From an uncultured Lachnospiraceae bacterium (GTDB lineage: Bacteria > Bacillota > Clostridia > Lachnospirales > Lachnospiraceae): a DNA stretch of 64,000 bases. The translations under genes were made by a program, and so were the position numbers. Where the stretch lies: positions 6,743 to 70,742 of the forward strand of contig CAMVOY010000001.1 of the NCBI GenBank assembly GCA_947169235.1, written 5' to 3'. The notes beneath the pieces are model-generated. The model ran no database searches, was not told where the DNA came from, and saw only the letters and a list, made by a program, of their open reading frames with translations. Positions 19,583-52,200 of the stretch are shown here, piece by piece. Every line of letters starts with the position of its first letter. Position 1 is the stretch's first letter.

Positions 19583-19599
19583 ACTATCATCCTCCGTTT

Positions 19600-19696
19600 C
19601 TTTTTTTTGTATAAAACAAAAGGCGCCTCGGTCACAAAACCGAGACGCCCTTGCCTCAACGAAACACATCGTAACATAGTTAAACTATTTTGTCAA
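19600..19696 (-). promoter_or_regulatory. promoter plus leader with hexaloop hairpin and intrinsic terminator (copy 1 of 3)
   Basis: On the minus strand: TTGACA (19696-19691), 17 nt, TACGAT (19673-19668). Then comes the hairpin TTGAGGC-AAGGGC-GTCTCGG (19659-19640). It is nested in the 5' arm of a terminator, GGCAAGGGCGTCTCGG/CCGAGGCGCCTTTT, followed by a U-run. Confidence 0.7.
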
Positions 19697-19736
19697 CTAT
19701 TTTTTTTACACTTGTTAAAAATTATCAAATATTTAT

Positions 19737-21230: not shown

Positions 21231-21240
21231 AGATACCTCC

Positions 21241-21325
21241 AAATAAGTAAAAGGCGCCCCGGATTTCTCCGAGACGCCTTTGCCTCAACGCTATGTATAA
21301 TATCACATGTGTGAGTGAGTGTCAA
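21241..21325 (-). promoter_or_regulatory. promoter plus leader with hexaloop hairpin and intrinsic terminator (copy 2 of 3)
   Basis: On the minus strand: TTGACA (21325-21320), 17 nt, TATTAT (21302-21297). Then the hairpin TTGAGGC-AAAGGC-GTCTCGG (21288-21269). The terminator is AAAGGCGTCTCGG/CCGGGGCGCCTTT plus a U-run abutting the RBS. Confidence 0.7.
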
Positions 21326-21364
21326 GTGGAATTTTTGAAAAGGATAGTGTTAGCGAGAAAACTC

Positions 21365-21393
21365 TTGCCATTTTCCTATATATATGATATACT
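21365..21393 (+). promoter_or_regulatory. candidate promoter for trpE
   Basis: TTGCCA, 17 nt, then TATACT preceded by TG. Confidence 0.5.
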
Positions 21394-21428
21394 TTACAAA
21401 ATTTTACACGGGAGGCAACACAGACATC

Positions 21429-22898: not shown

Positions 22899-22955
22899 TC
22901 ACCCGGATCAACCGTACTTTGCGATATGAACATGAATCAGAAAGGACCTGTAGAC

Positions 22956-23570
22956 ATGATATTACTTATAGATAATTATGACAGTTTTTCTTATAATCTG
23001 TACCAGATGATCGGTTCGATAGATCCCGATATCAAGGTTGTCAGAAATGACGCGCTTTCGACCTCCGAGATAAAAGACATGCATCCGACATGTATCATCC
23101 TTTCACCGGGACCGGGACGTCCTGTTGATGCAGGTATATGCGAGGATGTGGTTCGGGACCTGGCAGCGGAGTTTCCGATACTTGGAGTATGTCTCGGCCA
23201 TCAGGCAATATGTGAGGCGTATGGTGCGACAGTAACATACGCAAAGACTTTAATGCATGGCAAACAGTCCGAGACAGAGTTTGATACGGACTGTCCTGTT
23301 TTTGCATCGTTACCTGATAAAGCTCCGGTGGGAAGATATCACTCACTTTCCGTTGATAAAAAAACAATCCCGGATGAGCTTAGGATCACCGCGACTGCCG
23401 ATGACGGAGAGGTTATGGCTCTATGCCACAAAACACTTCCCGTATACGGACTTCAGTTCCATCCGGAATCGATTCTTACTCCATACGGGAAGCAGATGCT
23501 CGAAAACTTTTTGGAAGAGAGTCATCGTTTCAAGGCCCGCCAGTATGATGCGAGCAGTTATGGAATCTGA
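22956..23570 (+). CDS. trpG: anthranilate/aminodeoxychorismate synthase glutamine amidotransferase component II
   Basis: ILLIDNYDSFSYNLYQ, GVCLGHQ and LQFHPES triad motifs. Confidence 0.8.
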   Translation: MILLIDNYDSFSYNLYQMIGSIDPDIKVVRNDALSTSEIKDMHPTCIILSPGPGRPVDAGICEDVVRDLAAEFPILGVCLGHQAICEAYGATVTYAKTLMHGKQSETEFDTDCPVFASLPDKAPVGRYHSLSVDKKTIPDELRITATADDGEVMALCHKTLPVYGLQFHPESILTPYGKQMLENFLEESHRFKARQYDASSYGI

Positions 23571-32379: not shown

Positions 32380-33153
32380 TTATTTCTGTTTTGACTTTAA
32401 GCCGTACACCTCACGCATTGAGATATCTTTTGTAGGGTCGATACTCTCGATGTTTATCTCGTATCCATCATGGATTATGCGATCCAGGATCGCATCTGCA
32501 AGTGGAGATGCACTGCCACCAAGTTGATCATACCATCCTTCCTTGCGGTACTGTGAGCAAAAGATGGTTGATGATTTTTTGCGTCGTCTGTGCAACAGTT
32601 CAAAGATACACTGTTGTTCATACTCATCAGGAGTAAGAAGTAACCACTCATCTAGAATGAGTAGTGTGGGGTTGGCGTATTTACCAAGAGTCTTTTTAAA
32701 ATGATTCTCTTCTCGGGCCATCTTCAGGTCGAGAAGGAGATCCGGCATGCGGACATACTTGGTATTGTAAAAGTGTTTACAAGCTTCCATCCCCAGAGCA
32801 CAGGCAAGGTAGCTCTTACCACTGCCTGTGGCGCCGGTTATGAATACGTTAAGGTATTCCGTGATATAATCACATGTGGCGAGTCTAAGTATAAGATCCT
32901 TGTTAAGCTTTCGTCCGGAAGTATAGTCTATATCAACTACACTTGCTTCCGGTTGATCGAAACTGGCGTTTTTGATCAATCGCTTAAGACGGTTGCTCTT
33001 GCGACTTGAATACTCGATGTCAACCAGCATTGCCAATCGATCTTCGAAGGAAACCTCCTTCAGTTTTGGATCTTCCGATTGGATTATGAGAGCGTTTGCC
33101 ATTGATGTAAGACGCATCTCGATAAGCTTATTTATAGTACTTTGTTCAAACAT
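32380..33153 (-). CDS. istB: IS21-family helper ATPase IstB
   Basis: Walker A GATGSGKS, Walker B LLILDEW, and the typical IstB N-terminus. Confidence 0.95.
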   Translation of the reverse strand: MFEQSTINKLIEMRLTSMANALIIQSEDPKLKEVSFEDRLAMLVDIEYSSRKSNRLKRLIKNASFDQPEASVVDIDYTSGRKLNKDLILRLATCDYITEYLNVFITGATGSGKSYLACALGMEACKHFYNTKYVRMPDLLLDLKMAREENHFKKTLGKYANPTLLILDEWLLLTPDEYEQQCIFELLHRRRKKSSTIFCSQYRKEGWYDQLGGSASPLADAILDRIIHDGYEINIESIDPTKDISMREVYGLKSKQK

Positions 33154-33159
33154 TGACGA

Positions 33160-34698
33160 TTACCTCCTGTTATAGTAGTCGGCACCTCTCGTGATGCCGT
33201 AGGGATTGACGGTGGGTTCGGAAGACTGTTCTTCCGGTTTAGCTAGATCAGGCTTGGCTTTCAAGATGTTCAATACACTCTTGTAGCTCGGCGATGATGT
33301 TAAACTCAACGCTTTTGCACAGGCAGCTTCTAGTTGATTTGGAGAGTACCTCTCCGAAAGCTTTAGAAGCCCCATACAGCCCTTATAGGTCTGTTGCTCC
33401 ACTCGTCTGGAGGTAAGTATAGCGTCCACAACCTTGTAGGTATTTATCCCTATATGCTCCGCCCATTTGCGGAATCGATCACCGTTCCATTCCAAGAACT
33501 TTTGGTGATCCGGTGGCATATGTTCCGTTACCGTAGAATACTGTCCTTTGCGACCATACAGGCGCACATGGGTTGCGATACGGTTTTGGTTGTAGAATAC
33601 TTCAATAGTTTTGTCCGTTACCCGTACGTCGACACGTTTTTTTATGTACTCATATGGAACTGAGTATAGACAACCGTCGACAGATATGTGATAATTGAAC
33701 TGAACGGTGGCTTGTTTCCATTCCGCCAGTTCGTATGGGGTAGCGGGTAATGACGCCAGAAATGGTAATTCTTCGGTTCGGAATAGTTCATATCGGCTAC
33801 CCTCTTTTTTCTGAAAGGGTTTCCGATTGTAGGCATCGAGCTTTGCCCGTATCGCCTGATTCATCTCTCTGAACGAGAAAAACTGTTCATTTCTGAGAGC
33901 GGCTATGATCCACGTAGACACATGTCCTACGGATCCTTCCGCATTTGGTTTATCCTTTGGTTTTCGTACCCGTGCTGGGATGATGGCTGTCCCATAGTGT
34001 TCCGCCATCTCATGGTAGACTGCGTTTATCCGCGGATCTTCATATCTCTTGTTTTGATTGACCGCAGTTTTACAGTTATCCGGTATGAGGATTCGTGCTA
34101 CGCCACCAAAGAAGTCGTACATGTGGATATGGGCACTGATCCATGCTGCCTGCTTTTCGTCGGGGAATGCCTCAACGTAAGCGTACTGGCTGTAAGACAG
34201 GACTCCCACAAAGATGTGGGCATCGATGATCTCACCGGTATTCCGGTCGATGATCTGTGCCTTATCACCTGCCCAGTCCACTTCCACCTGCTCTGCAGGC
34301 TTGCGGTCGATATGCATGGTGGCACGTCGTTTCTGCTCATCCTGTTGGATGTAGTAGCAGAACTGAGAATACATGAGAGGATCATCCCCGTTTAATCGGC
34401 ACTCCTCCAAGTATTCGACCCATAGTAGTTTCTTGGAGACTCCGTTACGGAGAAGCTCCTTGCGGATGTAGTCGTAATCCGGCATCCGCTTGTCGCTTGA
34501 AGATTTGGGTTTCGGAAAAAGCTTTTCCTCAAGTGCCACATCCGTTAGTTCTTTCGGAAGCGGCCAGGACAATCCGAGCTCTTCGGCGCGTTTAAGCGCC
34601 TTAGCGACAGTGTTTCGCGAGCACGGGACACTTAATGCGATGTTCCGCGCGCTGAATCCAAGGCTGTTTAGCCTTAGGATTTCTCGGTACTTGTTCAT
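33160..34698 (-). CDS. istA: IS21-family transposase IstA
   Basis: 512 aa with N-terminal HTH (NIALSVPCSRNTVAKALKRA) and a DDE core. RBS AAGGAGGG. Confidence 0.95.
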   Translation of the reverse strand: MNKYREILRLNSLGFSARNIALSVPCSRNTVAKALKRAEELGLSWPLPKELTDVALEEKLFPKPKSSSDKRMPDYDYIRKELLRNGVSKKLLWVEYLEECRLNGDDPLMYSQFCYYIQQDEQKRRATMHIDRKPAEQVEVDWAGDKAQIIDRNTGEIIDAHIFVGVLSYSQYAYVEAFPDEKQAAWISAHIHMYDFFGGVARILIPDNCKTAVNQNKRYEDPRINAVYHEMAEHYGTAIIPARVRKPKDKPNAEGSVGHVSTWIIAALRNEQFFSFREMNQAIRAKLDAYNRKPFQKKEGSRYELFRTEELPFLASLPATPYELAEWKQATVQFNYHISVDGCLYSVPYEYIKKRVDVRVTDKTIEVFYNQNRIATHVRLYGRKGQYSTVTEHMPPDHQKFLEWNGDRFRKWAEHIGINTYKVVDAILTSRRVEQQTYKGCMGLLKLSERYSPNQLEAACAKALSLTSSPSYKSVLNILKAKPDLAKPEEQSSEPTVNPYGITRGADYYNRR

Positions 34699-34852
34699 AA
34701 CAAGCGCCCTCCTTTACATGAATTTACACAGAATGTGCATAAACTCATTATAAAGGATTATATATAATTGGCTCAACCGTTATCGGAATGATGGCTCACT
34801 GTAACCGGAAGGGTGGCTCACCCTCTGTCGGACAGGTGGCTCATCTGGGCCA

Positions 34853-35114: not shown

Positions 35115-35438
35115 TCAATCAATAAACAATTCCTTCTTGGAAGCATTAATGACCGCAGCAATAATATCCTTTGGCTTATTCTTGGATGACTCACAACTTT
35201 TTTGGCTGACACTTGGACCATCACTTCGTGATGCATCATAGGTTATAGAGACTTTGTTAAATTCTGGACTTGTTGTAATTACAAGAGAATATGTATGCTT
35301 ATAATCTCGGGAAGTATAATCAATATCTAAGGGTTTTCCATCTAACACAATATCCAATTTATAGTTTTCAGTCAAACCGCTATAATTATTAATATAATTG
35401 TTAACTATCTCTATTTCCTGATCGTTTACTTTCATCAT
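35115..35438 (-). CDS. hypothetical protein (107 aa), last gene of an AT-rich 3-gene operon
   Basis: RBS AAAGGAG. It overlaps the upstream gene by 38 nt in another frame. No family recognised. Confidence 0.6.
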   Translation of the reverse strand: MMKVNDQEIEIVNNYINNYSGLTENYKLDIVLDGKPLDIDYTSRDYKHTYSLVITTSPEFNKVSITYDASRSDGPSVSQKSCESSKNKPKDIIAAVINASKKELFID

Positions 35439-37173
35439 ATGACTCCTTTTTTATTTCATTTCGATCCAACTTATAGGGTTTAATCTCATCGGTTTCCCTA
35501 TAAAACAAATGCTCACCTATCAAAATATAATTCTCTGTTTCCTTTTCTATTCTTGTAAGCGCTTGTCCAATTAAACCATGTGAGAACGCATAGGCTCTCT
35601 CTCCTATCGTTAAACCTGCACCATCAACATAATTACGTTTAAAAACCCGTTTAGTACACTCCGTTTCCTGATCATATACATAGAGTGCTCCTTTCTTTGA
35701 ATATGCGATATATGGATAGTATGCTGAAAGTGATTCGTAATCGTCCGGAATATCTATCTCTTTTGATTCGTTATTAAAGTTTTCGCCGGAGTCCAAATCA
35801 AAATAGGAAAGAACATGTTTAGGTTTATTTAATCTATCATCATTTTTAATTCTATCAAATAAGATCCAAAGATGGTTTCTATGATTAATCGCCCCAACCA
35901 AATTAACAATCCATCTATTTTTCTTAAACTTACTTTTCAAAAACTCAGTGCTATACTCACTTGTATCAAGCGAATCCAACGAAAATCTAAACACCTTTTG
36001 ATGAAATGTTACCAAATCGTTTTTTACCGTCTCATGTCCGAAATATAAGTACCCCTCATAACAGCCAAGAAGTTGAGAATCTTTTTTGATTTCCTCAACA
36101 ACAAAACTTTTCATTTCAAGACCCTTTAGATTTAAAATATGACAAGTGCTTTTCATAGCTTCTCTGAAAAATAATTTTTTGCCCCTATACACACACATAT
36201 AGTTTATATTATGAAACTCATCACGCGAACATACCATCATTGACTCTTCATCGTTAAACTTATAACAATACAACACATTCTTACTTATATAATAAACTGT
36301 TCTACCCCATATACAAAAACATTTTATAGGAAATCTCAATTCATAAGGTATCAAATGCAACTCACCTGTTTCTTTGTCTACACAACAAAAATCATCTCCA
36401 TTAATATATGCCAAGCACTCATTGCTTTCAATATAGTCAGATGTAAGGCTATGAGGATCTAAGATTTTTTTTGCATATCCTTGTGCACACTCGTAACTAA
36501 TAGCCTTATACTCATCCTCCTCTTCACACGAAAAGTCCACATCAAACTTTTCATAATCATCAGATATTCCATAGTATCGTACAAGTCCCTCTTCACAAAA
36601 AACAAATTCGATAAGCCTAATTTCTGCATCAATCGTGTCCTTAATACTGTCATTTAGATTAAAGCGCGAGAATAACACTTTATCATAGTTATCCAGTTTG
36701 TCATCAACATCCTCATATAAAAAGAAGAATATCCGAAGCGCCTTATACAATACCTTTGAGTTCTCAACTAATTCAATTCTTTCAAAACTGGAAAAATCAT
36801 ACTCGGCATCTGGTTGCCATGAAAGCAACCCAAGTGCAGACTTTATATTAGTGCAATACTCAGTCTGATTTGCATTTTTTCCATCCAAAGAGAGCCTTGT
36901 CAATGCATTTAAAAGCATTCTCTTTTCATGATCTTCTAAATGTTCCAATCCATACGGATGTGTAATCCCAAAAAGCCTTTCAACAGCTTCATCATTAAAA
37001 TTATCTATTAAACTATCGATCGCATCAGACATTCCATCAACGTCATGACCAACATCAGTTATCAATTTTTTTAGATAATTAAGTGCGGACAGCTCCTTTT
37101 GAACTAATTCTTTATTGAGTTTAAGACCATATTTAACTCCCTCACCGAATTCATTTACATCTTTTTTGCTCAT
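35401..37173 (-). CDS. hypothetical protein: TerB-like helical N-domain plus C-terminal beta-propeller-like repeats
   Basis: LEDHEKRMLLNALTRLSLDGKNANQTEYCTNIKSALGL resembles the TerB/DjlA-N pattern. The C-terminal half has recurring (V/L)YY / LY(F/V) blades (TVYYISKNVLYCYKF, GYLYFGHE, ALYVYDQE, HLFYRE). ATGA overlap with the upstream gene. Confidence 0.7.
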   Translation of the reverse strand: MSKKDVNEFGEGVKYGLKLNKELVQKELSALNYLKKLITDVGHDVDGMSDAIDSLIDNFNDEAVERLFGITHPYGLEHLEDHEKRMLLNALTRLSLDGKNANQTEYCTNIKSALGLLSWQPDAEYDFSSFERIELVENSKVLYKALRIFFFLYEDVDDKLDNYDKVLFSRFNLNDSIKDTIDAEIRLIEFVFCEEGLVRYYGISDDYEKFDVDFSCEEEDEYKAISYECAQGYAKKILDPHSLTSDYIESNECLAYINGDDFCCVDKETGELHLIPYELRFPIKCFCIWGRTVYYISKNVLYCYKFNDEESMMVCSRDEFHNINYMCVYRGKKLFFREAMKSTCHILNLKGLEMKSFVVEEIKKDSQLLGCYEGYLYFGHETVKNDLVTFHQKVFRFSLDSLDTSEYSTEFLKSKFKKNRWIVNLVGAINHRNHLWILFDRIKNDDRLNKPKHVLSYFDLDSGENFNNESKEIDIPDDYESLSAYYPYIAYSKKGALYVYDQETECTKRVFKRNYVDGAGLTIGERAYAFSHGLIGQALTRIEKETENYILIGEHLFYRETDEIKPYKLDRNEIKKESYDESKRSGNRDS

Positions 37174-38495
37174 GTCCCACCTCCCTCGTATAGAAACGAA
37201 TAATTATCTCCAACAATTCTCTCATACAGTTTTTCTTCCAAGAACTCTTTTCTAATATTCCCTTGCAATTCACTATTAATTGCAATCTGATGTATTGCGT
37301 GAATATATCCACCAATGTCGATGTGCGATACTGCTTTTTTAGTCAACGGCTGAACTCCTGATAAAACTCCTACTAAAACACCTGCAGCCACCGCTACGAT
37401 ATTCAAACTTTCCGCAATAATTGATGATATTGCAAGAATCCTTTTTGTTCTCACCAAATAAATGTTATAATCACCATCTTTTTCCGGATTATACATAAAA
37501 GAATGTATTATTTCAATACATGTGCTGATGAACTCAGCCCAAAAATAATTCACTTTAATACCATTCATAGCCCCCTTTGCTATTTTTTCGAGTTCCTTGC
37601 TATTCCAATTCTTGTTAAGCATTTTTTGTTTTTTCTCAGGATTTATAAACGGAATAGGAAGCCCCTTTTTTGTATTCTTATCTGAAAGCATATGAGCTCT
37701 ATGCTTTTCCAATGCATTTTTCAATCGATCTGGATCCTCCGATACTGATCGAATAACATCTGCCACCATCATCGAAAACGAATATGGAGGAAATTCAGTG
37801 ATCCATTGCGTTCCACCTTCACGAGCAACTTTCATCGTCAAACAAAATGCCCCCTTTTCAATATCAAAAGAATCTTCTTCGGGATTAATCAATCTAGCAT
37901 TTTGAAAAGTAATTGAACGTGTCATTATGTTCATCGGGCCAAATACAAATCCTATAATCGGGTCATGACCAAGTGTCGCCGAATGATGATTCACGCCATT
38001 TAACTGTGCATACTCACCTTTCTTAAGACCAGGTATCCATATAAACTCTGTGCCTTCCGTTGCATCATAGGGAACAGGGAAATCTAATATCTCTTGTGCA
38101 GTAGGTAATTCATACAAATTGTCAGGTATCTCCTTCAACCTTCTCGAATCAAGCTTCGGATCTTTTTTTCCTTCTTCACCACTATCTTTTCTGTCCGAAA
38201 CATCAGGCGCAAGTGTTTTTTCATCTAATGTAGGTATCATAATCCACCTCAAACACTGTAACGCAACTGCAGTCCATAAAAATATAAGATCCTTTTTATT
38301 GAGAATCCCTGTCTTTTCCGAAAACTCCACATAGATATCATCAAAAACCTCATCTATCGTATTTATTTCACCTAACACACGATTTGCATTATCCTGCATT
38401 TCTGTTATCGCAGAATCCAGCTTTGAGATATTCTTGTGAAAGCTGTTACACGATTTATTGTAATTGTTTTTTATCCCTTTATATTTTTCAAGCAT
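37170..38495 (-). CDS. hypothetical protein (441 aa): coiled-coil N-terminus and two hydrophobic helices
   Basis: ATG 38495 lies 8 nt behind GGGAG; the track start 38501 is a GTG. Hydrophobic segments are LIFLWTAVALQCLRWIMIP and ILAISSIIAESLNIVAVAAGVLVGVLSGV. No family recognised. Confidence 0.7.
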   Translation of the reverse strand: MLEKYKGIKNNYNKSCNSFHKNISKLDSAITEMQDNANRVLGEINTIDEVFDDIYVEFSEKTGILNKKDLIFLWTAVALQCLRWIMIPTLDEKTLAPDVSDRKDSGEEGKKDPKLDSRRLKEIPDNLYELPTAQEILDFPVPYDATEGTEFIWIPGLKKGEYAQLNGVNHHSATLGHDPIIGFVFGPMNIMTRSITFQNARLINPEEDSFDIEKGAFCLTMKVAREGGTQWITEFPPYSFSMMVADVIRSVSEDPDRLKNALEKHRAHMLSDKNTKKGLPIPFINPEKKQKMLNKNWNSKELEKIAKGAMNGIKVNYFWAEFISTCIEIIHSFMYNPEKDGDYNIYLVRTKRILAISSIIAESLNIVAVAAGVLVGVLSGVQPLTKKAVSHIDIGGYIHAIHQIAINSELQGNIRKEFLEEKLYERIVGDNYSFLYEGGGT

Positions 38496-38534
38496 TCCCA
38501 CATCTCCCGTTTACAAAAAGGCCAATTCTATGCA

Positions 38535-38563
38535 ATCATACCATATATCTATGTATTTTTCAA
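38535..38563 (-). promoter_or_regulatory. candidate promoter of the AT-rich 3-gene operon
   Basis: On the minus strand: TTGAAA (38563-38558), 17 nt, TATGAT (38540-38535) preceded by TG. Confidence 0.55.
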
Positions 38564-38705: not shown

Positions 38706-39584
38706 CTATTCATCATCCTGATTATTCTCCGGCTCTTCCTCATACACCGCCGCTATACAGTGCAATGACGCCCTTTCCCCAGAAATCGAGCAATCCACAT
38801 CCACATAGAACGATCCGCTTCCATTTATCGTCAATTCTCCGGATTTCGTTATGGAAGCTATATCCGGATCACCCTCGGTGACATCAACTTTGTATTCATA
38901 TTTGTTATATTTATCATGAGTAATATAATCACTTATATTGATGGTCTGATTCTCAACTATGAACACAACATGGCCAATGTATTCTGTAAAGATGCCCGGT
39001 TCCTTGAAATCTTCATCATACTGCTCATAAAAACCATCCGCACTGTCAAATCTCAAAAAATGCGGTTTGTAAGTCAGGGATTTCTTCAGATTCTTTATTT
39101 TTTTCTTGAGAGACTTAATCTGATTCTCATACTTCGTAGGCGAGGCAGTCACCTTGACACATTTAACCACAGTACATGTATATCCGTTATAGGTCTTTGT
39201 CTTACCTGTCTTCTTGAAATAACCCATGCCACCTAGCGTGCTGTAGTTTTTAGTACCGCTGGCGACCCAGTAATATCCTTTATTTACATTGAGTAAGCCT
39301 TCATAATACACAATCAACGGATTATACGAGATAGTGGTCGCTCCAAATACCGCAAACGTACCCTTTGTTTGCTTCTTGTATTTCTTTTTTGCCGCTTTAT
39401 ATCGCTTTTGTGCGGTCTTCAGTTTTTTCTGCGTCTTCTTAATCTCATTCTTCACAGATGTTTTTGTCCAGGTCTTTGCCTGCGATACCGAACTGTTTGC
39501 ACCGATTCCGGCAAAAACCGACAGTGATAATACCATAACCAGCGTCAACACAAGGCTCAAGCCTCTTTTTTTCAATCCTTTCAT
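38706..39584 (-). CDS. secreted Lys-rich protein with C-terminal Ig-like (Big_2-like) domain
   Basis: Signal peptide MKGLKKRGLSLVLTLVMVLSLSVFAG. Lys-rich helices (KKTQKKLKTAQKRYKAAKKKYKK). C-terminal DIASITKSGELTINGSGSFYVDV and an acidic tail. ATG 39584 lies 2 nt after the upstream stop, behind GGAGGTG. Confidence 0.75.
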   Translation of the reverse strand: MKGLKKRGLSLVLTLVMVLSLSVFAGIGANSSVSQAKTWTKTSVKNEIKKTQKKLKTAQKRYKAAKKKYKKQTKGTFAVFGATTISYNPLIVYYEGLLNVNKGYYWVASGTKNYSTLGGMGYFKKTGKTKTYNGYTCTVVKCVKVTASPTKYENQIKSLKKKIKNLKKSLTYKPHFLRFDSADGFYEQYDEDFKEPGIFTEYIGHVVFIVENQTINISDYITHDKYNKYEYKVDVTEGDPDIASITKSGELTINGSGSFYVDVDCSISGERASLHCIAAVYEEEPENNQDDE

Positions 39585-39586
39585 GA

Positions 39587-40678
39587 TCAAACACCTCCAT
39601 TTTCATAATAATAAGCTAATCTCCAATACAACAACGCCATCGCTACATCGTCCGCTCTGGGATGATACAGCATCATTCCAAGATCAGACAGACACTCCAT
39701 CAGGTTTTCCGGAAGATAATAGTCCCGGAATTGCTTGTCAACAGGATACCTATACCAACCATTTTTCAGAATCTCCCGACACATATGGTCAATTTCTACC
39801 GCTGCTTGTTTGTCGCTAAAACACTTTGAGAGGAAGATTTTATAGACATCATCTCGTGATGACGGGATTCTTTTTTCTGAAACATCTCCATATCGGAGCC
39901 ACCAAAGCAACTTTTCCTGATTCTGTACGGTACCATGCAAAAAACCGATCACTCGTACAAGATCATAAAAGCTCTCAATAGGATATTCATCAAGTAGTTC
40001 CTCCAGATATTCTGCGTTTTCACCTCTAGCAAAGATACCTTTCTGTATCAACTCTTTGACGTTCGGGATTATGAATGCGACCGGAACTTCTCTGTCATCA
40101 AACGACGGTGTACTCATCGGAGCATTTGATTCATCCACGATTGCAGACAGCCTATCCACTGAGCAATCAGATATTATGGTACTCAGCTCATCCTTGTAGA
40201 TATAGGAATCTCCCTTTGATTCCATGTTTGTTTCTGCTAATTCACGATCAGATGCACATAGATCCCTTAAGTACTCTCGCCCCTTTGAGGATTGGACCAT
40301 CATCACATGCCTCATTCCGTTCTTTGGCAAGTTCTCAAGATAGATTTCTGCCGGAAGATTGTATGTGATAGGGTTTACATCGCCAGATAATCCCATGAGA
40401 TAGCTGACCAGAAGATTCGACATGGGTCCTCTTGGCATGTACTCCCAGGAATGAACTTGCATATCTCGGATTCTCATGGCGTTCTTTAGGATCCTTACAT
40501 CATTGCCTGTTTCTCGAGCTATCTTGAGTTCATATTCAAGACGATCTGATATGTTAACAGGAAGCGGATCACCGTATACCTTCTTTGCCCGCGACATGCA
40601 GGTGTTATGAAGGATCTCTCCTGGGTTGCTCTTTCCTGATCCTTTATGAAATGTGCCGTTTTTCAGAATCCCCCACAT
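39587..40678 (-). CDS. PolC-derived protein lacking the polymerase palm (about 363 aa)
   Basis: ATG 40678 lies 5 nt behind GGGGGTG; the track start 40732 lies in the promoter region. Blocks resembling Firmicute PolC are listed in the findings. No counterpart of the PDIDLNF catalytic segment was found. Confidence 0.7.
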   Translation of the reverse strand: MWGILKNGTFHKGSGKSNPGEILHNTCMSRAKKVYGDPLPVNISDRLEYELKIARETGNDVRILKNAMRIRDMQVHSWEYMPRGPMSNLLVSYLMGLSGDVNPITYNLPAEIYLENLPKNGMRHVMMVQSSKGREYLRDLCASDRELAETNMESKGDSYIYKDELSTIISDCSVDRLSAIVDESNAPMSTPSFDDREVPVAFIIPNVKELIQKGIFARGENAEYLEELLDEYPIESFYDLVRVIGFLHGTVQNQEKLLWWLRYGDVSEKRIPSSRDDVYKIFLSKCFSDKQAAVEIDHMCREILKNGWYRYPVDKQFRDYYLPENLMECLSDLGMMLYHPRADDVAMALLYWRLAYYYENGGV

Positions 40679-40727
40679 AAAAACACCCCCTATTGATGAT
40701 CTTAAGACCATTATAGAGGGTGGGGTA

Positions 40728-40742
40728 GACATATTCTGTCAC
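40728..40742 (-). promoter_or_regulatory. candidate operator, copy 1 (GTGACAGAATATGTC on the minus strand)
   Basis: 16/20 identical to the copy at 42046-42061. TGACAG lies exactly 20 nt upstream of TATAAT (40715-40710). Confidence 0.5.
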
Positions 40743-40844: not shown

Positions 40845-41798
40845 CTATGCAATCAGTTTAATCGAATCCCCTTGGCTTCTGAGCCACATATCAATACCCT
40901 TGCCAAACACCTCTGCCTGCACCGTATAGACACCATCATGCTCATCAAGGATCTGTGCGGTCGGGAGCCGATCAAGAATACAATTGATATCGAGACCACT
41001 GTACTCAAACTTCACGCGCTCAAGCCTACCCCCATACATGAACTGAATCCTTTTCCGGAACTCGCCCTCCTCAAACCTGCTGCTATACGGGATGTGGAAC
41101 TTCTCGTCCAGTATCTTCATGGACTGAATCCTGTCAATCCGGTAGATCGTCGGGAACGAGTCGTTGATAACATCAAAATGATCCCTAGTCTCCTTATCAT
41201 CGATAAAGGCGGTCAGATAAAAATAGTATTCAGAAAAGAGGATAGCTACCGGGCGGAGTTTCCGCTTGACTACCTGCTTATCCTTCAGTCGCAGGTAATC
41301 AACCTCAATCAGCTTGCTTTCCCTTATCGCCTGCCCGATATCCCAGATCTTGTCGATAAACTCCGAACCATGCCGCGGCTCAATATAATGAAAAGCCTCA
41401 TTGCGGATCAAATCCTTGACTCTCTCCTGATTACTCTTCGGCACGCAGCAGGAGATCAGTTTATCGAGCATTTCCTGAACAACTTCCTTTGAAAAAGCTC
41501 TGGCTTCGAGAAGAATCTTGCAGATCGCGAGTATCTCGGAATTATCAAGCTTCAGATTGTAGACCTGATCCAGCTTGTAACCCCTGCTCTTATAATCGTA
41601 GATTACGGAGTTGACGATACCTGTTCGCTCAGCATCATTGTCCAAAAACGCTCTTACATCATCGATATCTCTCTGAATTGAACGCTCCGTAACACCGTAT
41701 TTCTGTGCCTCATTAGCCTTATTGATAACCTCGCCTTCACAAAGTCTCGTATAAAGCTGAAGCACCCTAGAAATCTTGTCTCTCTTGTCATCATCCAT
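40845..41798 (-). CDS. HTH-WYL domain transcriptional regulator (BrxR/CapW/YafY-like)
   Basis: N-terminal wHTH (RVLQLYTRL...YGVTERSIQRDIDDVRAFL). Central WYL-type block RKLRPVAILFSEYYFYLTAF. There is a C-terminal extension. ATG 41798 lies 5 nt behind AGGTGA. Confidence 0.8.
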   Translation of the reverse strand: MDDDKRDKISRVLQLYTRLCEGEVINKANEAQKYGVTERSIQRDIDDVRAFLDNDAERTGIVNSVIYDYKSRGYKLDQVYNLKLDNSEILAICKILLEARAFSKEVVQEMLDKLISCCVPKSNQERVKDLIRNEAFHYIEPRHGSEFIDKIWDIGQAIRESKLIEVDYLRLKDKQVVKRKLRPVAILFSEYYFYLTAFIDDKETRDHFDVINDSFPTIYRIDRIQSMKILDEKFHIPYSSRFEEGEFRKRIQFMYGGRLERVKFEYSGLDINCILDRLPTAQILDEHDGVYTVQAEVFGKGIDMWLRSQGDSIKLIA

Positions 41799-41803
41799 AC
41801 AGA

Positions 41804-41980
41804 TCACCTATCCCTTCCGATATCCCATGGATCAAAGTCATCGTCCCATTTTTCCTTATCGAAGAACTTCCGTTTCAAAATATGAAACAATACGGCGAAT
41901 ATGATAACACATATCATACTGCCAATAACGAATGTTTCTTGATCCCAGTTTTCCACCCCAGTAGTCAACAATTCCTGCAT
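41804..41980 (-). CDS. small single-pass membrane protein (58 aa)
   Basis: ATG 41980 lies behind GAGGGGG. TM segment FVIGSMICVIIFAVLFHIL with an acidic, Trp-rich tail. Its stop is 5 nt before the WYL regulator start. Confidence 0.45.
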   Translation of the reverse strand: MQELLTTGVENWDQETFVIGSMICVIIFAVLFHILKRKFFDKEKWDDDFDPWDIGRDR

Positions 41981-42045: not shown

Positions 42046-42061
42046 GGACAGATTCTGTCAT
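42046..42061 (-). promoter_or_regulatory. candidate operator, copy 2 (ATGACAGAATCTGTCC on the minus strand)
   Basis: Contains the perfect inverted repeat GACAG-AAT-CTGTC. TGACAG lies exactly 20 nt upstream of TATACT (42034-42029). Confidence 0.5.
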
Positions 42062-45120: not shown

Positions 45121-46821
45121 ATGTGTGCGATACTGACTTATGCCCGCACGGATGTGACTGAAAACTTCTTTACGGATATGCTCATGAAGACACAGTCGAG
45201 GGGTCCGGATATGACTGACCATATCAAGACTAAGGGTGGTTGGATCGGATTCAACCGTCTGTCGATCATGGGACCGGAGCCCACGGGAATGCAGCCGTTT
45301 ACGCATCGCGGAAATGCGGTTGTATGTAACGGTGAGATCTATGGATTCGGACCGTTAAAAGAGTATCTGGCTTCGATCGGATATCCGTTTGAAAGCGGAA
45401 GTGACTGCGAACTGTTGATGCCACTTTATGAGAAACTCGGCACGGCGATGTTTGGCATATTGGATGCGGAGTTTGCATGTGTCATCTATGACGGGGAGAA
45501 AAATGAGTTCATAGCCGCGAGAGATCCGATCGGGATCAGACCTTTGTACTACGGATATGACGAAGACGGATATATCATTTTTGCATCAGAGCCTAAAAAC
45601 ATGGTGGGGGTAGTTAAGGAAATAAAACCGTTTCCGCCTGGGCATTTTTATAAGGACGGGGAGTTCGTATGTTACCGCGATATGACAACGGGCGGTGTTT
45701 ATGCGAAGGATGAATGGAACCCCGGAAAGGCAGGACAGGGACGGCACTTAAGCGGAGTCGGAAACGCCCTGAGTCGAAAGACCAAAGGCAGCATGACGCT
45801 GTCGAACGGGATCGGGATTCACGACGAGGGAGTCGATGCGATCTGTGAGGGAATACACGACAGACTGTTAAACGGTATCAGAAAAAGACTTACCGCAGAC
45901 CAGCCGGTAGGATTCCTACTCTCGGGAGGACTTGATTCTTCACTGGTATGCGGAGCGGCAGCTAAGCTGTGGGACGGTCCGATCGAGACATTTGCTATCG
46001 GAATGGATATCGATGCGATCGATCTGAAATACGCGAGACAGGTTGCCGATTATATCCATTCAAATCACCATGAGGTGATAATCACGGCAGACGATGTCAT
46101 CGAGGCTGTCGAGCCGGTAATACAGGCGCTCGCTACATATGACATTACGACGATCAGAGCGTCGATAGGAATGTATCTTCTCTGCAAATGGATCCATGAG
46201 AACACCAACATAAAGGTGCTCCTCACCGGAGAGATATCGGATGAGCTGTTCGGATACAAATACACCGACTTTGCACCGGATGCGGAGAGCTTCCAGGAGG
46301 AATCGAAAAAAAGGATCAGGGAGCTTCATATGTATGATGTGCTCCGCGCCGATCGCTGCATCAGCGTAAACTCACTTGAGGCGAGGGTGCCGTTCGGAGA
46401 TCTCGATTTCGTCGATTACGTGATGGCGATCGATCCTGAGAAAAAGATGAACACCTACGGCATCGGAAAGTATCTTTTGAGACACGCTTTTGAAAATGAC
46501 GAGCTGATACCTCACGAGATACTGATGAGAGAAAAGGCAGCGTTCTCTGACGCGGTTGGGCACTCACTAAGAGACGACCTGATGGACTTCGCTGAAAAGA
46601 CCTACACAGACGAATCATTTGAAGAAGGAATAAAAAAGTATTCGCACGCACAGCCGTTTACCAAGGAGTCACTCCTATACCGTGACATCTTCGAAAAATA
46701 TTATCCGGGCCAATCCCATATGGTAGACGATTTCTGGATGCCGAATAAGTCCTGGGAAGGCTGTAACGTTAATGATCCGTCGGCGCGCGTTCTGTCAAAT
46801 TATGGCGCGAGCGGAGAGTAA
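45121..46821 (+). CDS. asnB: asparagine synthase (glutamine-hydrolysing)
   Basis: N-terminal MCAI nucleophile Cys2, the PP-loop LLSGGLDSS, and conserved C-terminal synthetase blocks. Confidence 0.9.
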   Translation: MCAILTYARTDVTENFFTDMLMKTQSRGPDMTDHIKTKGGWIGFNRLSIMGPEPTGMQPFTHRGNAVVCNGEIYGFGPLKEYLASIGYPFESGSDCELLMPLYEKLGTAMFGILDAEFACVIYDGEKNEFIAARDPIGIRPLYYGYDEDGYIIFASEPKNMVGVVKEIKPFPPGHFYKDGEFVCYRDMTTGGVYAKDEWNPGKAGQGRHLSGVGNALSRKTKGSMTLSNGIGIHDEGVDAICEGIHDRLLNGIRKRLTADQPVGFLLSGGLDSSLVCGAAAKLWDGPIETFAIGMDIDAIDLKYARQVADYIHSNHHEVIITADDVIEAVEPVIQALATYDITTIRASIGMYLLCKWIHENTNIKVLLTGEISDELFGYKYTDFAPDAESFQEESKKRIRELHMYDVLRADRCISVNSLEARVPFGDLDFVDYVMAIDPEKKMNTYGIGKYLLRHAFENDELIPHEILMREKAAFSDAVGHSLRDDLMDFAEKTYTDESFEEGIKKYSHAQPFTKESLLYRDIFEKYYPGQSHMVDDFWMPNKSWEGCNVNDPSARVLSNYGASGE

Positions 46822-46927
46822 TTGTGGCGCGAGCGGAGAATAATATTAGCGCGAGCGCTATGGTAGCTTTATATCCTCGCTCGCGCATATGAAGCGCTCC
46901 TCGGATATAAACTACCGCCGCTCGCGC
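46801..46927 (+). repeat. GC-rich repeat cluster: 3 direct and 2 inverted copies of GCGCGAGCG
   Basis: Direct copies at 46805, 46827 and 46849 (22-nt period). Inverted copies CGCTCGCGC at 46878 and 46919. The first two units duplicate the last 21 nt of asnB, stop codon included (19/21 identical). Confidence 0.8.
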
Positions 46928-47029
46928 GGGAACACTAAAGAATAGTTTGTTCATCCGACAAGCAAAGATTAACAACGAGGGTTTGTTTGTACCAATTGGA
47001 GTATAAACTCCACATGTAACCAAAAAGCA

Positions 47030-47109
47030 TGTGCAAGCGGCAGGAGATATATTCCGAGGAGTGCTTTAATGCACGAGCGAGGAATATATACTCCGATCGC
47101 GCTTGCACA
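47030..47109 (+). other. 80-nt extended imperfect hairpin just upstream of the glnN RBS
   Basis: TGTGCAAGCG/CGCTTGCACA (47030-39/47100-09), GGAGATATATTCC/GGAATATATACTCC (47043-55/47081-94), GTGC-TTTAAT-GCAC (47061-74). No U-run follows. Confidence 0.6.
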
Positions 47110-47140
47110 GGAAACTTTAGTAAAATAGGAGGGAATTATC

Positions 47141-49249
47141 ATGATGGAAGCAAAGAGATTACCTGAGGAATACGGAAGTTTAGTTTTCGGCGACAAGGTT
47201 ATGCGCGAGCGTCTGCCAAAGGATGTTTACAAAGCAGTCCACAAGACGATCGTAAGCGGCACGCATCTTGAACTCGACGTCGCCAACGCAGTTGCAGTGG
47301 CGATGAAGGAATGGGCGATCGAGAACGGTGCGACACACTACACACACTGGTTCCAGCCGATGACAGGACTCACCGCTGAGAAACATGACAGCTTTATCTC
47401 ACCGGAAGGTGACGGCAGTGTGATCATGGAGTTCTCAGGTAAAGAGCTTGTAAAGGGAGAGCCGGATGCGTCGAGTTTTCCGTCCGGAGGCTTGCGTGCT
47501 ACATTTGAGGCGAGAGGATATACCGCATGGGATCCTTCTTCACCGGCATTTATCAAGGACGGATCGCTCTACATCCCGACAGCGTTCTGCTCATACGGAG
47601 GCGAGGCTCTCGATAAAAAGACACCGCTTCTGCGTTCTATGGAAGCGCTTTCTAAGGAAGCGGTAAAAATAATGAACATCCTGGGTTATGAGGATGTAAG
47701 TCGGGTAAATACAACGATCGGATCCGAGCAGGAATATTTCCTTATCGACAAGGAAGATTATAAACAGAGAAAGGACCTTCTCTTCACGGGACGTACTCTT
47801 ATCGGTGCGCCTGCTACAAAGGGACAGGAGATGGAGGATCACTACTTCGGAGTTATCAAGCCGAAGGTATCAGCATTCATGCATGATCTCGATGAGGAGC
47901 TGTGGAAGCTCGGTATCCCGGCAAAGACCAAGCACAACGAGGTTGCTCCTTCACAGCACGAGATGGCTCCTGTTTTTGAGACGGCAAATGTGGCTGTCGA
48001 TCACAACCAGCTGACTATGGAGGTTATGAAAAAAGTTGCCGACAAGCACGGATATGCATGCCTCCTTCATGAAAAACCATTCGACGGTATCAACGGTTCA
48101 GGAAAGCATAATAACTGGTCAATCTGTACGGACACCGGTATCAACCTCCTTGATCCGGGCAAGCATCCTGATGACAACGTACCGTTCCTCGTAACACTGA
48201 TCGCGGTTATCGCGGCGGTTGACGAGTACGCTGAGCAGCTTCGTCTGTCGGTGGCATCTGCAGGAAATGATCATCGACTCGGAGCAAACGAGGCGCCGCC
48301 GGCAGTTATCTCAATCTTCGTCGGCGATGAGCTTGCAAAGGTGCTTGAGAGCATCGAGCAGGGTACAGCCTTCAAGGGCGGAGCAAAGGTAAAAATGGAG
48401 ATGGGTGCTGAAGTACTTCCGCACATCACCAAGGATAACACGGACCGTAACCGTACATCACCGTTTGCCTTCACGGGCAACAAGTTCGAGTTCCGTATGC
48501 CGGGTTCAAGCGTGTCAGTTGCAAACGCAAACATCGTACTCAACACGGCAGTTGCCGAGATCCTCTCACGCATGAGCGCAGAGCTCGACGGACTTACCGG
48601 AGACGCTCTTCATGACAAACTGACAGAGCTCTTAAAGACAACACTTGTTGATCACAAGAGAGTACTTTTTAACGGAAACGGATATACGGACGAGTGGATC
48701 GAGGAAGCAGCAAAGAGAGGTCTTCCGAACCTCAAGTCACTTCCGGATGCCATGCCGGAGTGGATCTCAGACAAGTCGATCAAGCTCTTTACTTCACACC
48801 AGATCTTCACTGAGGAAGAGATCAGATCACGTTATGAGATACTGCTTGAGAATTATTCAAAGTCGATCAATATCGAAGCGCTCACCATGCAGGAGATGGT
48901 TCGCAAGGATCTGACTTCAGGGATCATAGCGTATGAGCAGGATCTTACAAATGAGATCCTCCAGAAGGAGAAAGCGCTTCCGGGCGCCAAGGCAGCACTT
49001 GAGGGACAGATCCTTAAAACTCTTGATGATACATCAGCGGAGATCGCTGAGAAACTCGAGACCCTGAAAAAGGATACGTTCGAGGCTGAGAGTATCAAGG
49101 ATGTCCAGAAGCAGGCTGACTTCTATGAGAAAAAAGTCCTTGCTGATATGGATGAGTTGAGAATATATGCAGATCAGGCAGAGGCACTTATCCCTGATGA
49201 GTATCTCAGCTATCCGACCTACGGACAGATGCTGTTTTCACTCAGATGA
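47141..49249 (+). CDS. glnN: glutamine synthetase type III
   Basis: 702 aa. N-terminus ..FGDKVMRERLPKDVYKAV..ATHYTHWFQPMTG is typical of GS-III. RBS GGAGGG. Confidence 0.9.
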   Translation: MMEAKRLPEEYGSLVFGDKVMRERLPKDVYKAVHKTIVSGTHLELDVANAVAVAMKEWAIENGATHYTHWFQPMTGLTAEKHDSFISPEGDGSVIMEFSGKELVKGEPDASSFPSGGLRATFEARGYTAWDPSSPAFIKDGSLYIPTAFCSYGGEALDKKTPLLRSMEALSKEAVKIMNILGYEDVSRVNTTIGSEQEYFLIDKEDYKQRKDLLFTGRTLIGAPATKGQEMEDHYFGVIKPKVSAFMHDLDEELWKLGIPAKTKHNEVAPSQHEMAPVFETANVAVDHNQLTMEVMKKVADKHGYACLLHEKPFDGINGSGKHNNWSICTDTGINLLDPGKHPDDNVPFLVTLIAVIAAVDEYAEQLRLSVASAGNDHRLGANEAPPAVISIFVGDELAKVLESIEQGTAFKGGAKVKMEMGAEVLPHITKDNTDRNRTSPFAFTGNKFEFRMPGSSVSVANANIVLNTAVAEILSRMSAELDGLTGDALHDKLTELLKTTLVDHKRVLFNGNGYTDEWIEEAAKRGLPNLKSLPDAMPEWISDKSIKLFTSHQIFTEEEIRSRYEILLENYSKSINIEALTMQEMVRKDLTSGIIAYEQDLTNEILQKEKALPGAKAALEGQILKTLDDTSAEIAEKLETLKKDTFEAESIKDVQKQADFYEKKVLADMDELRIYADQAEALIPDEYLSYPTYGQMLFSLR

Positions 49250-49279
49250 TGAGATCAAATATGCTGTAATTTAGAATGG

Positions 49280-52200
49280 ATGATGATGATGAATAATAGT
49301 GACAATAATAATCAGGTTATTAATGCCGATTGGTGGAAAAATGAACACGATGCTTGTGGTATCGGAGCTGTTATAAATATTGACGGCAAGAAGGACCATA
49401 GGGTACTTGATGATGCATTAAGCATCGTTGAAAAACTGGAGCACCGCGCCGGGAAGGACGCTACCGGAAAGGTCGGTGACGGTGTCGGGATCCTGACTCA
49501 GATCTCGCACACATTTTTCAAAAAAATATGTAAAAGATCAGGTATAGAAATTGGCGATGAAGGCGACTACGGAATCGGTATGTTTTTCTTTCCGCAGGAT
49601 GATATCAAGCGTCGTTTTGCAATGAGGATGCTTGAGGTCATCGCGGAAAAGGAAGGCATCGGGTTCCTCGGCTGGCGTGATGTGGATACGCATCCGGAGT
49701 TACTCGGTCAGGTGGCCGTGGACTGCATGCCTCATATCAGCCAGTGCTTTCTCAAGAGACCTGACGATGTAGAAAAGGGACTCGATTTCGACAGAAGACT
49801 TTTCTGTCTGCGTCGTGAATATGAGCAGAGTTCCGAGGATACATATATCTGTTCACTGTCCTCTCGTACCATCGTGTACAAGGGTATGTTTTTGGTAGGA
49901 CAGCTCAGAAACTTCTACGAGGATCTGCTGTCAAAGGATTATAAAACAGCGATCGCACTCGTTCACTCCAGATTCTCGACCAATACCACTCCGTCATGGC
50001 AGCGTGCTCATCCGTATCGTATGATCGCGCACAACGGTGAGATCAACACGATCCGCGGTAATGCAGATCGTATGCTCGCCCGTGAGGAGACCATGAGCGG
50101 AGCGGTCCTTACTGACGATCTCAAAAAAGTATATCCTGTTATCGCAGCATCAGGTTCTGATTCCGCGATGCTTGATAACACATTGGAATTCCTTTACATG
50201 AACGGAATGGAGCTCCCACTCGCCATGATGATCACGGTACCGGAGCCGTGGAAACATGATGACGCGATGAGTCAGGAGCGCAAAGATTTTTATCACTATT
50301 ATGCAACCATGATGGAGCCATGGGACGGCCCGGCAGCCATTCTTTTTACAGACGGAGAACTATTCGGTGCGACGCTCGACAGAAACGGACTTCGTCCGAG
50401 CCGTTACTATGTAACAAAGGATAAGAGGCTCATCCTCGCATCAGAGGTGGGTGTACTTGACATACCCGAGGATACGATCGAAAAGAAATCGAGACTGTCA
50501 CCGGGAAGGATGCTCGTAGTTGATACCAAAGAGGGCAGGATCCTCACAGATACGGAGCTCAAGGAGCGTTATGCTCACGCTCATCCGTACGGCGAGTGGC
50601 TCGATCGTCATCTTCTTCATTTGGATCATTTAAACATCCCGAATAAAAAGATCCCGACACATGAGCAGTCTGTACGTGACCGTCTTTACAAGGTTTTCGG
50701 TTACTCCTATGAGGATATAAAAAACCAGATACTCCCGATGGCGATGGACGGCGTGGAGCCTACGGTATCAATGGGAAATGATGTTCCGCTCGCGATGCTC
50801 TCATCACATCACCAGCCGCTGTTCTGTTATTTCAAGCAGTTATTCGCGCAGGTGACCAATCCGCCGATCGATTCACTCAGGGAGAAGATCGTAACAGATA
50901 CCACCGTCTACATAGGTTCAGACGGTGATCTTTTGCAGGTAAAGAGTGACAACTGTCGTGTGCTCGAGGTGAACAGCCCGATCCTTACCGGTGTAGATCT
51001 GATGAAGATAGAAGCGCTCGATATGGAGGGATTCCGCACTGCAAAGGTGTCATTACTTTATTATAAAAATACTCCGCTCGAGCGTGCTCTCGATCAGTTA
51101 AACATTGCAGTTGACAGAGCCGTATCAGAGGGGGCAAATATAATCACTCTTTCAGACCGCGGTGTCGATGAAAACCATATGCCGATACCGTCACTTCTTG
51201 CGGTATCATCGGTTGAGCAGCATCTGGTACGCACCAAGAAGAGAACCCAGGTATCACTTATACTCGAGAGCGGCGAGCCGAGAGATGTGCATCAGATCGC
51301 ATGCCTTCTTGGCTATGGTGTACGTGCCATCCATCCTTATCTCGCGCATGAATGCATCGCCGAGATGATAGACATCGGCATGATCGATAAGGATTATCAT
51401 ACTGCGATTGAAGATTATAACAAAGCACTTTTAAACGGTGTAGTAAAGATCGCTGCGAAAATGGGAATATCAACGCTGCAGTCTTATCAGTCTGCGCGTA
51501 TTTTTGAAGCGATCGGATTATCTAAAGAATTGATAGATACTTACTTTACAGGTACCGTGAGTCGCGCAGGCGGTATCGGGATCCGTGAGATCGGAGAGGA
51601 TGTAGAGCTGTGTCATAATAAGGCATTTGATCCTTTGGGTCTTCCTGTTGACTCGACGCTTGATTCGATCGGTTTCCATGGACTCAGAAGCGGTGCCGAC
51701 AAAGAGGATCATATGTACACGCCGAAGACGATCGTAACACTCCAGCGTGCAGTAAGAGAGGGCGACTACGATATATTCAAGGAGTACGCCCGTATGGTCG
51801 ACGACGAGAACAGACCGCATACGCTGCGAGCGCTGCTCGAGTTTATTCCGGCTAAAAAACCTATTCCTTTGGATGAAGTGGAGAGCGAGGATGAAATAGT
51901 AAAACGCTTCCAGACAGGAGCCATGTCATATGGTTCCCTGTCACAGGAGGCGCACGAGACGCTCGCGATCGCCATGAACAGACTCGGTGGCAGATCAAAT
52001 ACGGGCGAAGGTGGCGAGGCTACTGAGCGTTTCGGAACGGAGAGAAACTCTGCGGTCAAGCAGGTGGCCAGCGGAAGGTTCGGTGTGACCTCTAGCTACC
52101 TCATGAGCGCAAAAGAAATACAGATAAAAATGGCCCAGGGCGCGAAGCCCGGCGAGGGCGGACATCTCCCCGGCAAAAAGGTTTACCCGTGGGTAGCCAA

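Follow-up and report, generated by a model that had tools for sequence, protein, structure and literature searches.

This analysis concerns a three-gene operon on the minus strand of a 64,000-nt stretch of DNA (contig CAMVOY010000001.1, hereafter the window) from an uncultured Lachnospiraceae bacterium. The gene products of 441, 590 and 107 amino acids (aa) are termed P1, P2 and P3. P1 (37170..38495) was taken to start with the ATG at 38495, for which a GGGAG Shine-Dalgarno motif is found 8 nt upstream; the mechanical list of open reading frames (ORFs) sets the start two codons earlier, at GTG 38501, and the database copy P0002 has the identical length of 441 aa. P2 (35401..37173), the partner protein and presumed sensor, carries a net charge of -30. 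At the P1/P2 junction (acATGAgc) the two genes overlap by 4 nt, with GAGGGAGG just before. P3 (35115..35438), a lineage-specific small protein, overlaps P2 by 38 nt and appears to be translationally coupled to it; AAAGGAG is located 6 nt 5' of its ATG and P3 therefore looks translated.

The GC content over 35-38 kb is 0.334-0.358, which is the minimum of the window (next lowest value 0.376; flanks 0.44-0.50). A σ70-like promoter, TTGAAA-17-TGgTATGAT, is present at 38535..38563 on the minus strand as a consensus match with a score of 10/12 and an extended -10 TG. Since promoter-like matches are abundant in this AT-rich DNA (38 versus 26.5 ± 4.7 in shuffled sequences), it is the position of this candidate in the 205-nt gap before P1 which makes it plausible. 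An initial annotation made from the letters alone had described three tightly coupled minus-strand genes with their own promoter in the most AT-rich stretch of the window; the ORF list, both overlaps, the promoter string and the GC values agree with this description.

Protein families of P1 and P2

P1 matched the PADLOC profile for BnzB (PDLC03834) with an E-value of 1.9e-26 over profile positions 231-464 of 504, and eight of its relatives matched the same profile with E-values from 1e-13 to 1e-28. BnzB is one of the two proteins of the defence system Bunzi (BnzA and BnzB), for which the system of Ligilactobacillus animalis was verified in B. subtilis (Millman et al. 2022). For comparison with this verified pair, residues 1-400 of BnzA and of BnzB were available from the supplement of that publication. 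Using hhalign, the P1 family was aligned to the verified BnzB with an E-value of 7e-5 and to a two-sequence BnzB profile with a probability of 91% (E-value 9e-7). In alignments of 20 and 78 sequences, the polar motifs VPYDA, NHHSATLGHDP..G..FG..NI.T, H268..S-D272, GLPIP, WNS.EL and H331 of P1 are invariant. L. animalis BnzB carries these motifs as VNYDA, NNHH..H.PD, H..SD and GLPAP, and YDA, NHH, H.P, H..SD and GLP.P are also present in the BnzB of E. coli. Judged by these comparisons, P1 is a homologue of BnzB. It is placed in a separate paralogous clade because canonical BnzB reaches an E-value of only 2e-9 against the hidden Markov model (HMM) of the P1 family.

Homologues of P1 (n = 218, the best being 47% identical) were found mostly in gut metagenomes and Lachnospiraceae, with some in Treponema and Leptotrichia. 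The distribution is rare and patchy, with 11 loci among 185,579 species genomes.

The conserved core of P1 comprises aa ~139-300 (37596..38081) and includes the VPYDA, NHH, H268..SD272 and GLPIP columns. The main hydrophobic helix corresponds to aa 352-385 (37341..37442; Kyte-Doolittle value 2.14) and a second, weaker hydrophobic segment to aa 69-88 (38232-38291; 1.66). In a confident AlphaFold2 model computed from 78 sequences (predicted local distance difference test, pLDDT, 88.5; predicted template modelling score 0.71), the N-terminus of P1 forms a helical hairpin, which is followed by a hydrophobic helix at aa 67-86 and an alpha/beta core; the long helices of the C-terminal part include aa 352-385. 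This fits the coiled-coil head and the two hydrophobic helices assigned to the first protein in the initial annotation.

None of the three proteins gave a match above threshold in Pfam, NCBIfam or PHROGs, and sequence searches of the PDB with P1, P2 and P2-family profiles returned noise only. Foldseek searches with the P1 model against PDB and BFVD found no significant neighbour (best E-value 0.5 in PDB, none below 0.45 in BFVD). An assignment of P1 as an alpha-pore-forming toxin was considered and rejected, the match to SmhB being non-significant (E-value 1.4, TM-score 0.17). The earlier statement that no enzymatic domain is recognisable is correct as far as Pfam and NCBIfam domains above threshold are concerned; it is qualified by the invariant His/Asp motifs, which resemble a metal site or an active site.

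For P2, word-indexed searches returned no more than P2 itself and one other protein, whether the query was the single sequence or a six-sequence profile. That P2 is an orphan was nevertheless refuted by BLASTP against the neighbours of P1 homologues and by exhaustive HMMER searches; the apparent orphan status was an artefact of the word-index filter. The genes of ~590 aa downstream of P1 homologues are 24-30% identical to P2 over the first 270-360 residues (E-values 3e-39 to 9e-13), and phmmer with P2, run exhaustively over 1.84 billion representatives, found 153 clusters at E ≤ 1e-3. The homology is essentially limited to residues 1-210, while the member proteins are 170-894 aa long. By homology, this N-terminal helical domain (aa 1 to ~210, 36544..37173) is the family-defining part of P2; E83, L87, N100 and Q103 are its conserved residues.

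In an AlphaFold2 model from 70 sequences, the N-terminal domain is helical (pLDDT >90 over aa 70-200) and the C-terminal half consists of all-beta hairpin repeats (pLDDT 50-88). With this model, Foldseek found 236 PDB matches at E ≤ 1e-3. Kelch and WD40 propellers were matched with a probability of 1.0 over ~300 columns; the propellers of Keap1 (Kelch), Utp21 (WD40) and tricorn gave E-values of 2e-6 to 3e-5. The C-terminal part (aa ~245-570, 35464..36441) is accordingly predicted to form a beta-propeller, as the initial annotation had surmised from its repeats, although no Pfam repeat was found in this half at threshold. It is the hypervariable part of the protein and cannot be aligned to the partners in the related loci L001, L004 and L006. 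The maximum Kyte-Doolittle value of P2 over 19 residues is 0.86, so that P2 contains no segment resembling a transmembrane (TM) helix. Neither P2 nor P3 contains a hydrophobic segment, and for P3 this agrees with its earlier description as a small soluble protein.

The TerB-like domain which had been assigned to P2 was not recovered. Pfam TerB matched neither P2 nor its 70 relatives, and the P2-family profile found no TerB among the PDB sequences. In hhalign, the N-terminal domain of P2 reached a probability of 0.1-0.2% against TerB (2JXU). The verified BnzA, used as the positive control, was equally low at 0.2%, and the low value of P2 is therefore no refutation of a TerB-like domain. A homology of the N-terminal hairpins of P1 and P2 was also considered and rejected as too weak (probability 42% over 42 coiled-coil columns).

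Related loci, partner exchange and the WYL regulator

A total of 85 related loci (numbered with the prefix L) was fetched, including genome, metagenome and viral scans. Downstream partners were counted for the 54 distinct P1 genes behind which the available sequence was long enough, and WYL genes were counted for 45 loci. P1 homologues typically occur in the tightly packed order WYL, P1, P2-type gene. A P2-family gene immediately follows P1 in 45 of the 54 distinct loci (full length in 39, truncated in six). A dynamin-like GTPase together with a protein of ~253 aa was found in five loci and another downstream gene in the remaining four. The WYL gene is located directly upstream of P1 in 17 of the 45 loci; in eight others it occupies a different position in the locus. 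In comparison to L001, P1 of the window is 47%, its WYL protein 49% and P2 30% identical, the latter over the N-terminal ~360 aa alone.

P3 was found in only one of the 85 loci, L007, which is a second contig of the same element, and searches of plasmids, phages and JGI metagenome contigs yielded no relatives of P3. What recurs is (WYL)-P1-P2 without P3; the triad proposed in the initial annotation is not conserved as a unit. An ORF of ~76 aa, unrelated to P3, recurs after the P2-type gene in one subclade (L006, L041, L045, L049, L072, L073 and L078).

The C-termini of the partners differ between loci. A beta-propeller in the window is replaced by domain 3 of EF-Tu on plasmid pNP40, by a beta-helix, or by BnzA-N-like domains in protein P0159. 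Among 70 P2-family members, P0159 is the sole one with a PADLOC match to BnzA (5.6e-14); a local phmmer search traced this match to two copies of the BnzA N-terminal domain in its variable region.

The composite loci L062, L063, L065 and L084 (916-8826) have the order WYL-P1a-P2-P1b-dynamin-253aa, in which the module with the dynamin-like partner stands in tandem with a P1-P2 module, while the sibling locus L064 (3689-8826) contains only WYL-P1b-dynamin-253aa. From this comparison it follows that modules were inserted downstream of the WYL gene, as in the window. One copy of the composite locus is located on the IMG/VR viral contig IMGVR_UViG_3300045988_121847. In six loci (L005 7283-9059, L020 7223-9054, L042, L046, L053 and L054), including the complete chromosome of Leptotrichia rugosa, the P2-type partner is split or truncated and P1 is intact. 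This suggests, at the level of the gene sequences, that the partner gene has been inactivated repeatedly.

The WYL-domain transcription regulator of the window is encoded at 40845..41807 on the minus strand (320 aa from GTG, or 317 aa from the ATG at 41798). It matched Pfam WYL above the cut-off (8.4e-8), HTH_11 weakly and PADLOC WYL with 2.6e-18. Against the WYL proteins of L010-L014 it gave E-values of 1e-143 to 1e-153. The 49% identity (E-value 2e-122) to the WYL protein of L001, which directly precedes P1, equals the divergence of P1 and for this reason the WYL gene is, as read from the sequences, the own regulator of the cassette. The initial annotation had regarded it as part of an adjacent WYL-regulated unit, which does not agree with the WYL gene abutting P1 in the relatives.

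Two genes separate WYL and P1 in the window, and WYL is likewise displaced in L010. The first, directly after WYL, encodes a highly diverged, internally deleted PolC-like protein of 381 aa (39587..40732, minus strand; Pfam DNA_pol3_alpha 5.9e-7). It is collinear with residues ~857-935 and ~1136-1316 of the 1474-aa PolC in 9qpc and looks to lack the central palm segment. This protein could be a decoy or sensor, or it could belong to a separate WYL-controlled module. The second gene overlaps the end of the first by 4 nt and encodes a protein of 294 aa (38706..39590, minus strand) with a hydrophobic signal or anchor at aa 8-36 and a Lys-rich coiled coil, for which sub-threshold coiled-coil matches only were obtained. 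Neither protein gave matches in plasmids, phages or metagenomes. Among the related loci both genes are found only in L007 and they are outside the conserved cassette. The membership of a 58-aa ORF with one hydrophobic helix (41804..41980, minus strand) is uncertain; its stop codon overlaps the WYL start, and the gene table of L007 lists it.

An operator-like palindrome, TGACAGAATCTGTCC (42046..42060), is located in the promoter region upstream of the 58-aa ORF and the WYL gene, and a second, variant palindrome, TGACAGAATATGTCT (40727..40741), at the start of the 381-aa gene. In 8 of 26 distinct related loci, a palindrome of the form GACA-N5-TGTC precedes WYL by 40-70 nt, compared to ~0.06 expected per locus by our own estimate. 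Repression of defence loci by WYL regulators of the BrxR/CapW type is well established (PMC9122601, PMC11662680). By analogy, autoregulation of WYL through the candidate palindrome is plausible. As in the wHTH-WYL-WCX regulators of this type, the WYL protein of the window combines a WYL domain with a helix-turn-helix N-terminus and heads a defence-like cassette, with the palindrome, to which it would bind, upstream of its own gene. The window differs from them by the two genes inserted between regulator and P1-P2 and by the lack of an operator copy before P1.

Relation to Bunzi and interpretation

P1 resembles BnzB in its coiled-coil head, in having a hydrophobic helix in its interior and in the YDA/NHH/H..SD/GLP.P core. 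Both systems consist of two tightly linked genes, and an association with WYL also exists for the canonical Bunzi on plasmid pLLI11B. The partner is different. P2 is composed of a distinct helical domain of ~210 aa and a beta-propeller; it contains no BnzA N-terminal domain, and hhalign of its N-terminal domain against BnzA gave a probability of ~1%. The hydrophobic helices are located in P1 and not in the partner. The canonical order BnzA-BnzB (from gene OIDs and strand, and on pLLI11B) is reversed to P1-P2. The locus contains a BnzB homologue, but since BnzA, the TM helices of the partner and the canonical gene order are all missing, it was not filed as canonical Bunzi. PADLOC-style rules which require both proteins would miss it, and no description of this Bunzi-like variant was found in the literature searched. 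The claim that the module has not been described does not hold, however, as P1 is a BnzB homologue and the module is of the Bunzi kind (Millman et al. 2022).

Several described or sequenced loci are similar in part. On pLLI11B (L085, NZ_PP589806, 2070-8490), a WYL gene is followed by a 205-aa gene, a P1-like gene, a canonical BnzA (E-value 1.5e-74) and a BnzB (3.9e-79); two BnzB paralogues are thus arranged in one operon-like array under one WYL gene. The Lactococcus lactis plasmid pNP40 (WP_012477759/58/57) has a WYL gene, a P1-like protein of 406 aa (BnzB E-value 1.9e-13) and a partner with the N-terminal domain of P2 (1e-34 with the HMM of this domain, 4e-5 with BLASTP). Unlike in the window, WYL directly abuts P1, P3 is missing and the C-terminus of the partner (L022, NC_010901, 6185-7645) is an EF-Tu domain-3 module (PF03143, E-value 7e-23) instead of a beta-propeller. 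This partner joins part of an essential translation factor to an adaptor domain of the defence type. The locus is unannotated and no description of it was found in the literature searched. The megaplasmid of Lachnospira eligens (EUBELI_RS12505-12490) is an example of the loci with dynamin-like partners, which were compared together with Eleos (LeoA/LeoBC). WYL is followed there by a P1-like protein (BnzB E-value 3.5e-21) as the first gene of effector type, and the partner is a Zn-ribbon and dynamin-family GTPase (LeoA 2.4e-10) with a third protein of ~253 aa; no GTPase is encoded in the window. Shango and other TerB-containing systems form the context in which TerB domains are linked to membrane surveillance. 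P2 and its 70 relatives show no TerB signal in Pfam, and helicase or ATPase partners are missing from the window cassette.

Based on the observed homologies, gene linkage, domain architecture and modular exchange of partners, the region is probably a two-component defence module of the Bunzi kind which was acquired horizontally and is associated with WYL, while its third gene is specific to the lineage; P1 would be the effector and P2 the sensor. As the constant effector, P1 would act at the cytoplasmic membrane, either by inserting into it and permeabilising it or through a metal-dependent activity directed at one of its components; the hydrophobic helices of P1 and the membrane surveillance suggested for Bunzi are in line with this. 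The N-terminal helical domain of P2 may dock to or restrain P1, and its hypervariable beta-propeller may detect a phage-derived protein or a perturbation caused by infection, whereupon P1 would be set free and the infection aborted. WYL would repress its own operon via the GACA-N5-TGTC palindrome, as BrxR/CapW-type regulators do. After the presumed insertion of two unrelated genes between WYL and P1, the P1-P2-P3 genes are preceded by a promoter-like site of their own and by no copy of the operator, and P3 might be an add-on accessory. The abortive-infection or stress module of the initial annotation is retained in this reading as far as the sensor-like protein with a repeat domain and its membrane-directed partner are concerned, while novelty, triad and defence island were abandoned.

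A number of observations weigh against this interpretation. The anti-phage function, the sensor and effector roles, the membrane targeting and the regulation are inferred. For P1 in particular, either pore formation or an enzymatic activity is conjecture, because its fold has no structural neighbour. PADLOC found no BnzA match for P2 or for five partners, and BnzA has two TM helices (glycine-zipper) where P2 has none. No WYL gene is nearby in 20 of the 45 loci, no operator-like palindrome is located in front of P1, and the number of palindromes in the window as a whole is not above chance. No other defence systems were found near the cassette in the flanks. Finally, a predicted 'Bunzi' locus of lactococci did not protect against the phages used in the tests (PMC11381338).

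This last result would also fit genes which do not act against phages at all and instead form a module for mobile-element maintenance or membrane stress, such as an addiction pair similar to toxin-antitoxin (TA) systems or a membrane-repair system, which travels with WYL regulators. Relatives on plasmids and integrative elements, the tight coupling of two genes, which resembles the organisation of TA systems, and the dynamin-type partners at sister loci are in line with this explanation. Dynamin proteins are known from membrane repair. Still, the sizes of P1 and P2 (441 and 590 aa) and the presence of a hypervariable binding domain would be atypical of a TA pair, a diversifying partner is the signature of host-parasite conflict, and one system with a BnzB-family protein has been shown by experiment to be protective (Millman 2022); a maintenance or stress function is therefore considered rather improbable. 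A reversal of the roles within the same Bunzi-like module is unlikely as well. P1 would then be a membrane-resident sensor, for example of phage DNA injection or holin action, and P2 or the dynamin the responder at the membrane. The hydrophobic helices do sit in P1, membrane surveillance was proposed for Bunzi by Millman et al. (2022), and the dynamin-like GTPase which serves as alternative partner is a membrane-remodelling machine and as such untypical as a sensor. In contrast, P2 of the window has no catalytic or membrane-active signature, its propeller and the C-terminal modules exchanged for it elsewhere, such as EF-Tu domain 3, resemble binding modules, and the strictly conserved His/Asp core is located in P1, which is what an effector would be expected to show.

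A secreted or contact-dependent toxin (similar to LXG or alpha-pore-forming toxins) with accessory and immunity proteins, P3 being the immunity protein, is very improbable. Helical N-terminal heads occur in both P1 and P2, the small P3 gene is located downstream, and the weak top Foldseek matches of P1 include SmhB (alpha-pore-forming toxin) and pyocin S5. These matches are non-significant, though (E > 0.5, TM-score < 0.2), neither a signal peptide nor LXG/WXG or toxin-domain matches were found, no secretion-system genes are nearby, P3 is not conserved together with the P1-P2 pair, and the BnzB homology of P1 points elsewhere.

The locus widens the family of Bunzi, a validated defence system without a described mechanism. 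BnzB belongs to a larger paralogous family with invariant His/Asp core motifs and a fold without a solved or viral relative. The partners of this family are of at least three types unrelated to each other, i.e., the TerB-TM protein BnzA, a helical-domain protein with swappable C-termini and dynamin-like GTPases, and WYL regulators head all three of them. Such variants are invisible to current annotation, since PADLOC finds one of the two proteins and the word-indexed search turned P2 into an orphan; the same false-orphan artefact is common for fast-evolving, AT-rich sensor proteins. The natural partners with EF-Tu domain 3 or a propeller provide handles on how Bunzi-type systems sense infection and on what the effector does. 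A more far-reaching proposal, which we regard as doubtful, is that the BnzB-like proteins (P1, canonical BnzB and the clade linked to dynamin) form one widespread effector family with a previously unseen fold and a His/Asp metal centre which attacks the membrane. Interchangeable partners would arm these effectors, and some of them would mimic essential host proteins as decoys, as EF-Tu domain 3 on pNP40 and possibly the PolC-like protein next to the cassette would do, amounting to decoy-guard immunity in which the beta-propeller would be a further bait or receptor.

Flanking genes and mobility

The flanks were annotated by reading the translations and from the gene table of L007. One flank contains an ABC-2 permease, amt-glnK, purF, trpE/G-like genes, a surface protein and an ECF transporter; the other contains an ABC transporter, asnB and glnA. 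The region is a low-GC islet of ~7 kb and not a multi-system defence island, and the defence-island context of the initial annotation is replaced by chromosomal housekeeping genes. As is usual for defence genes, the relatives occur together with WYL regulators on mobile DNA (plasmids, integrative elements and a viral contig); their settings include the phage-resistance plasmid pNP40, integrase, relaxase and RecT neighbours, an IMG/VR contig and insertion sequence (IS) elements.

A nitrogen-metabolism neighbourhood is found at 17816-23570 and 45121-53833, with an Amt-GlnK fusion, purF, trpE/G-like genes, asnB, a type III glnA and an ORF of 1517 aa. An IS21-family element is located at 32380-34698 and up to ~35000 (istA, 512 aa; istB, 257 aa). 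Repeated terminal motifs of the TGAGCCA type were found around 34770-34830. The insertion lies ~100-300 nt downstream of P3, and the sister contig L007 breaks inside the IS21 terminal repeats.

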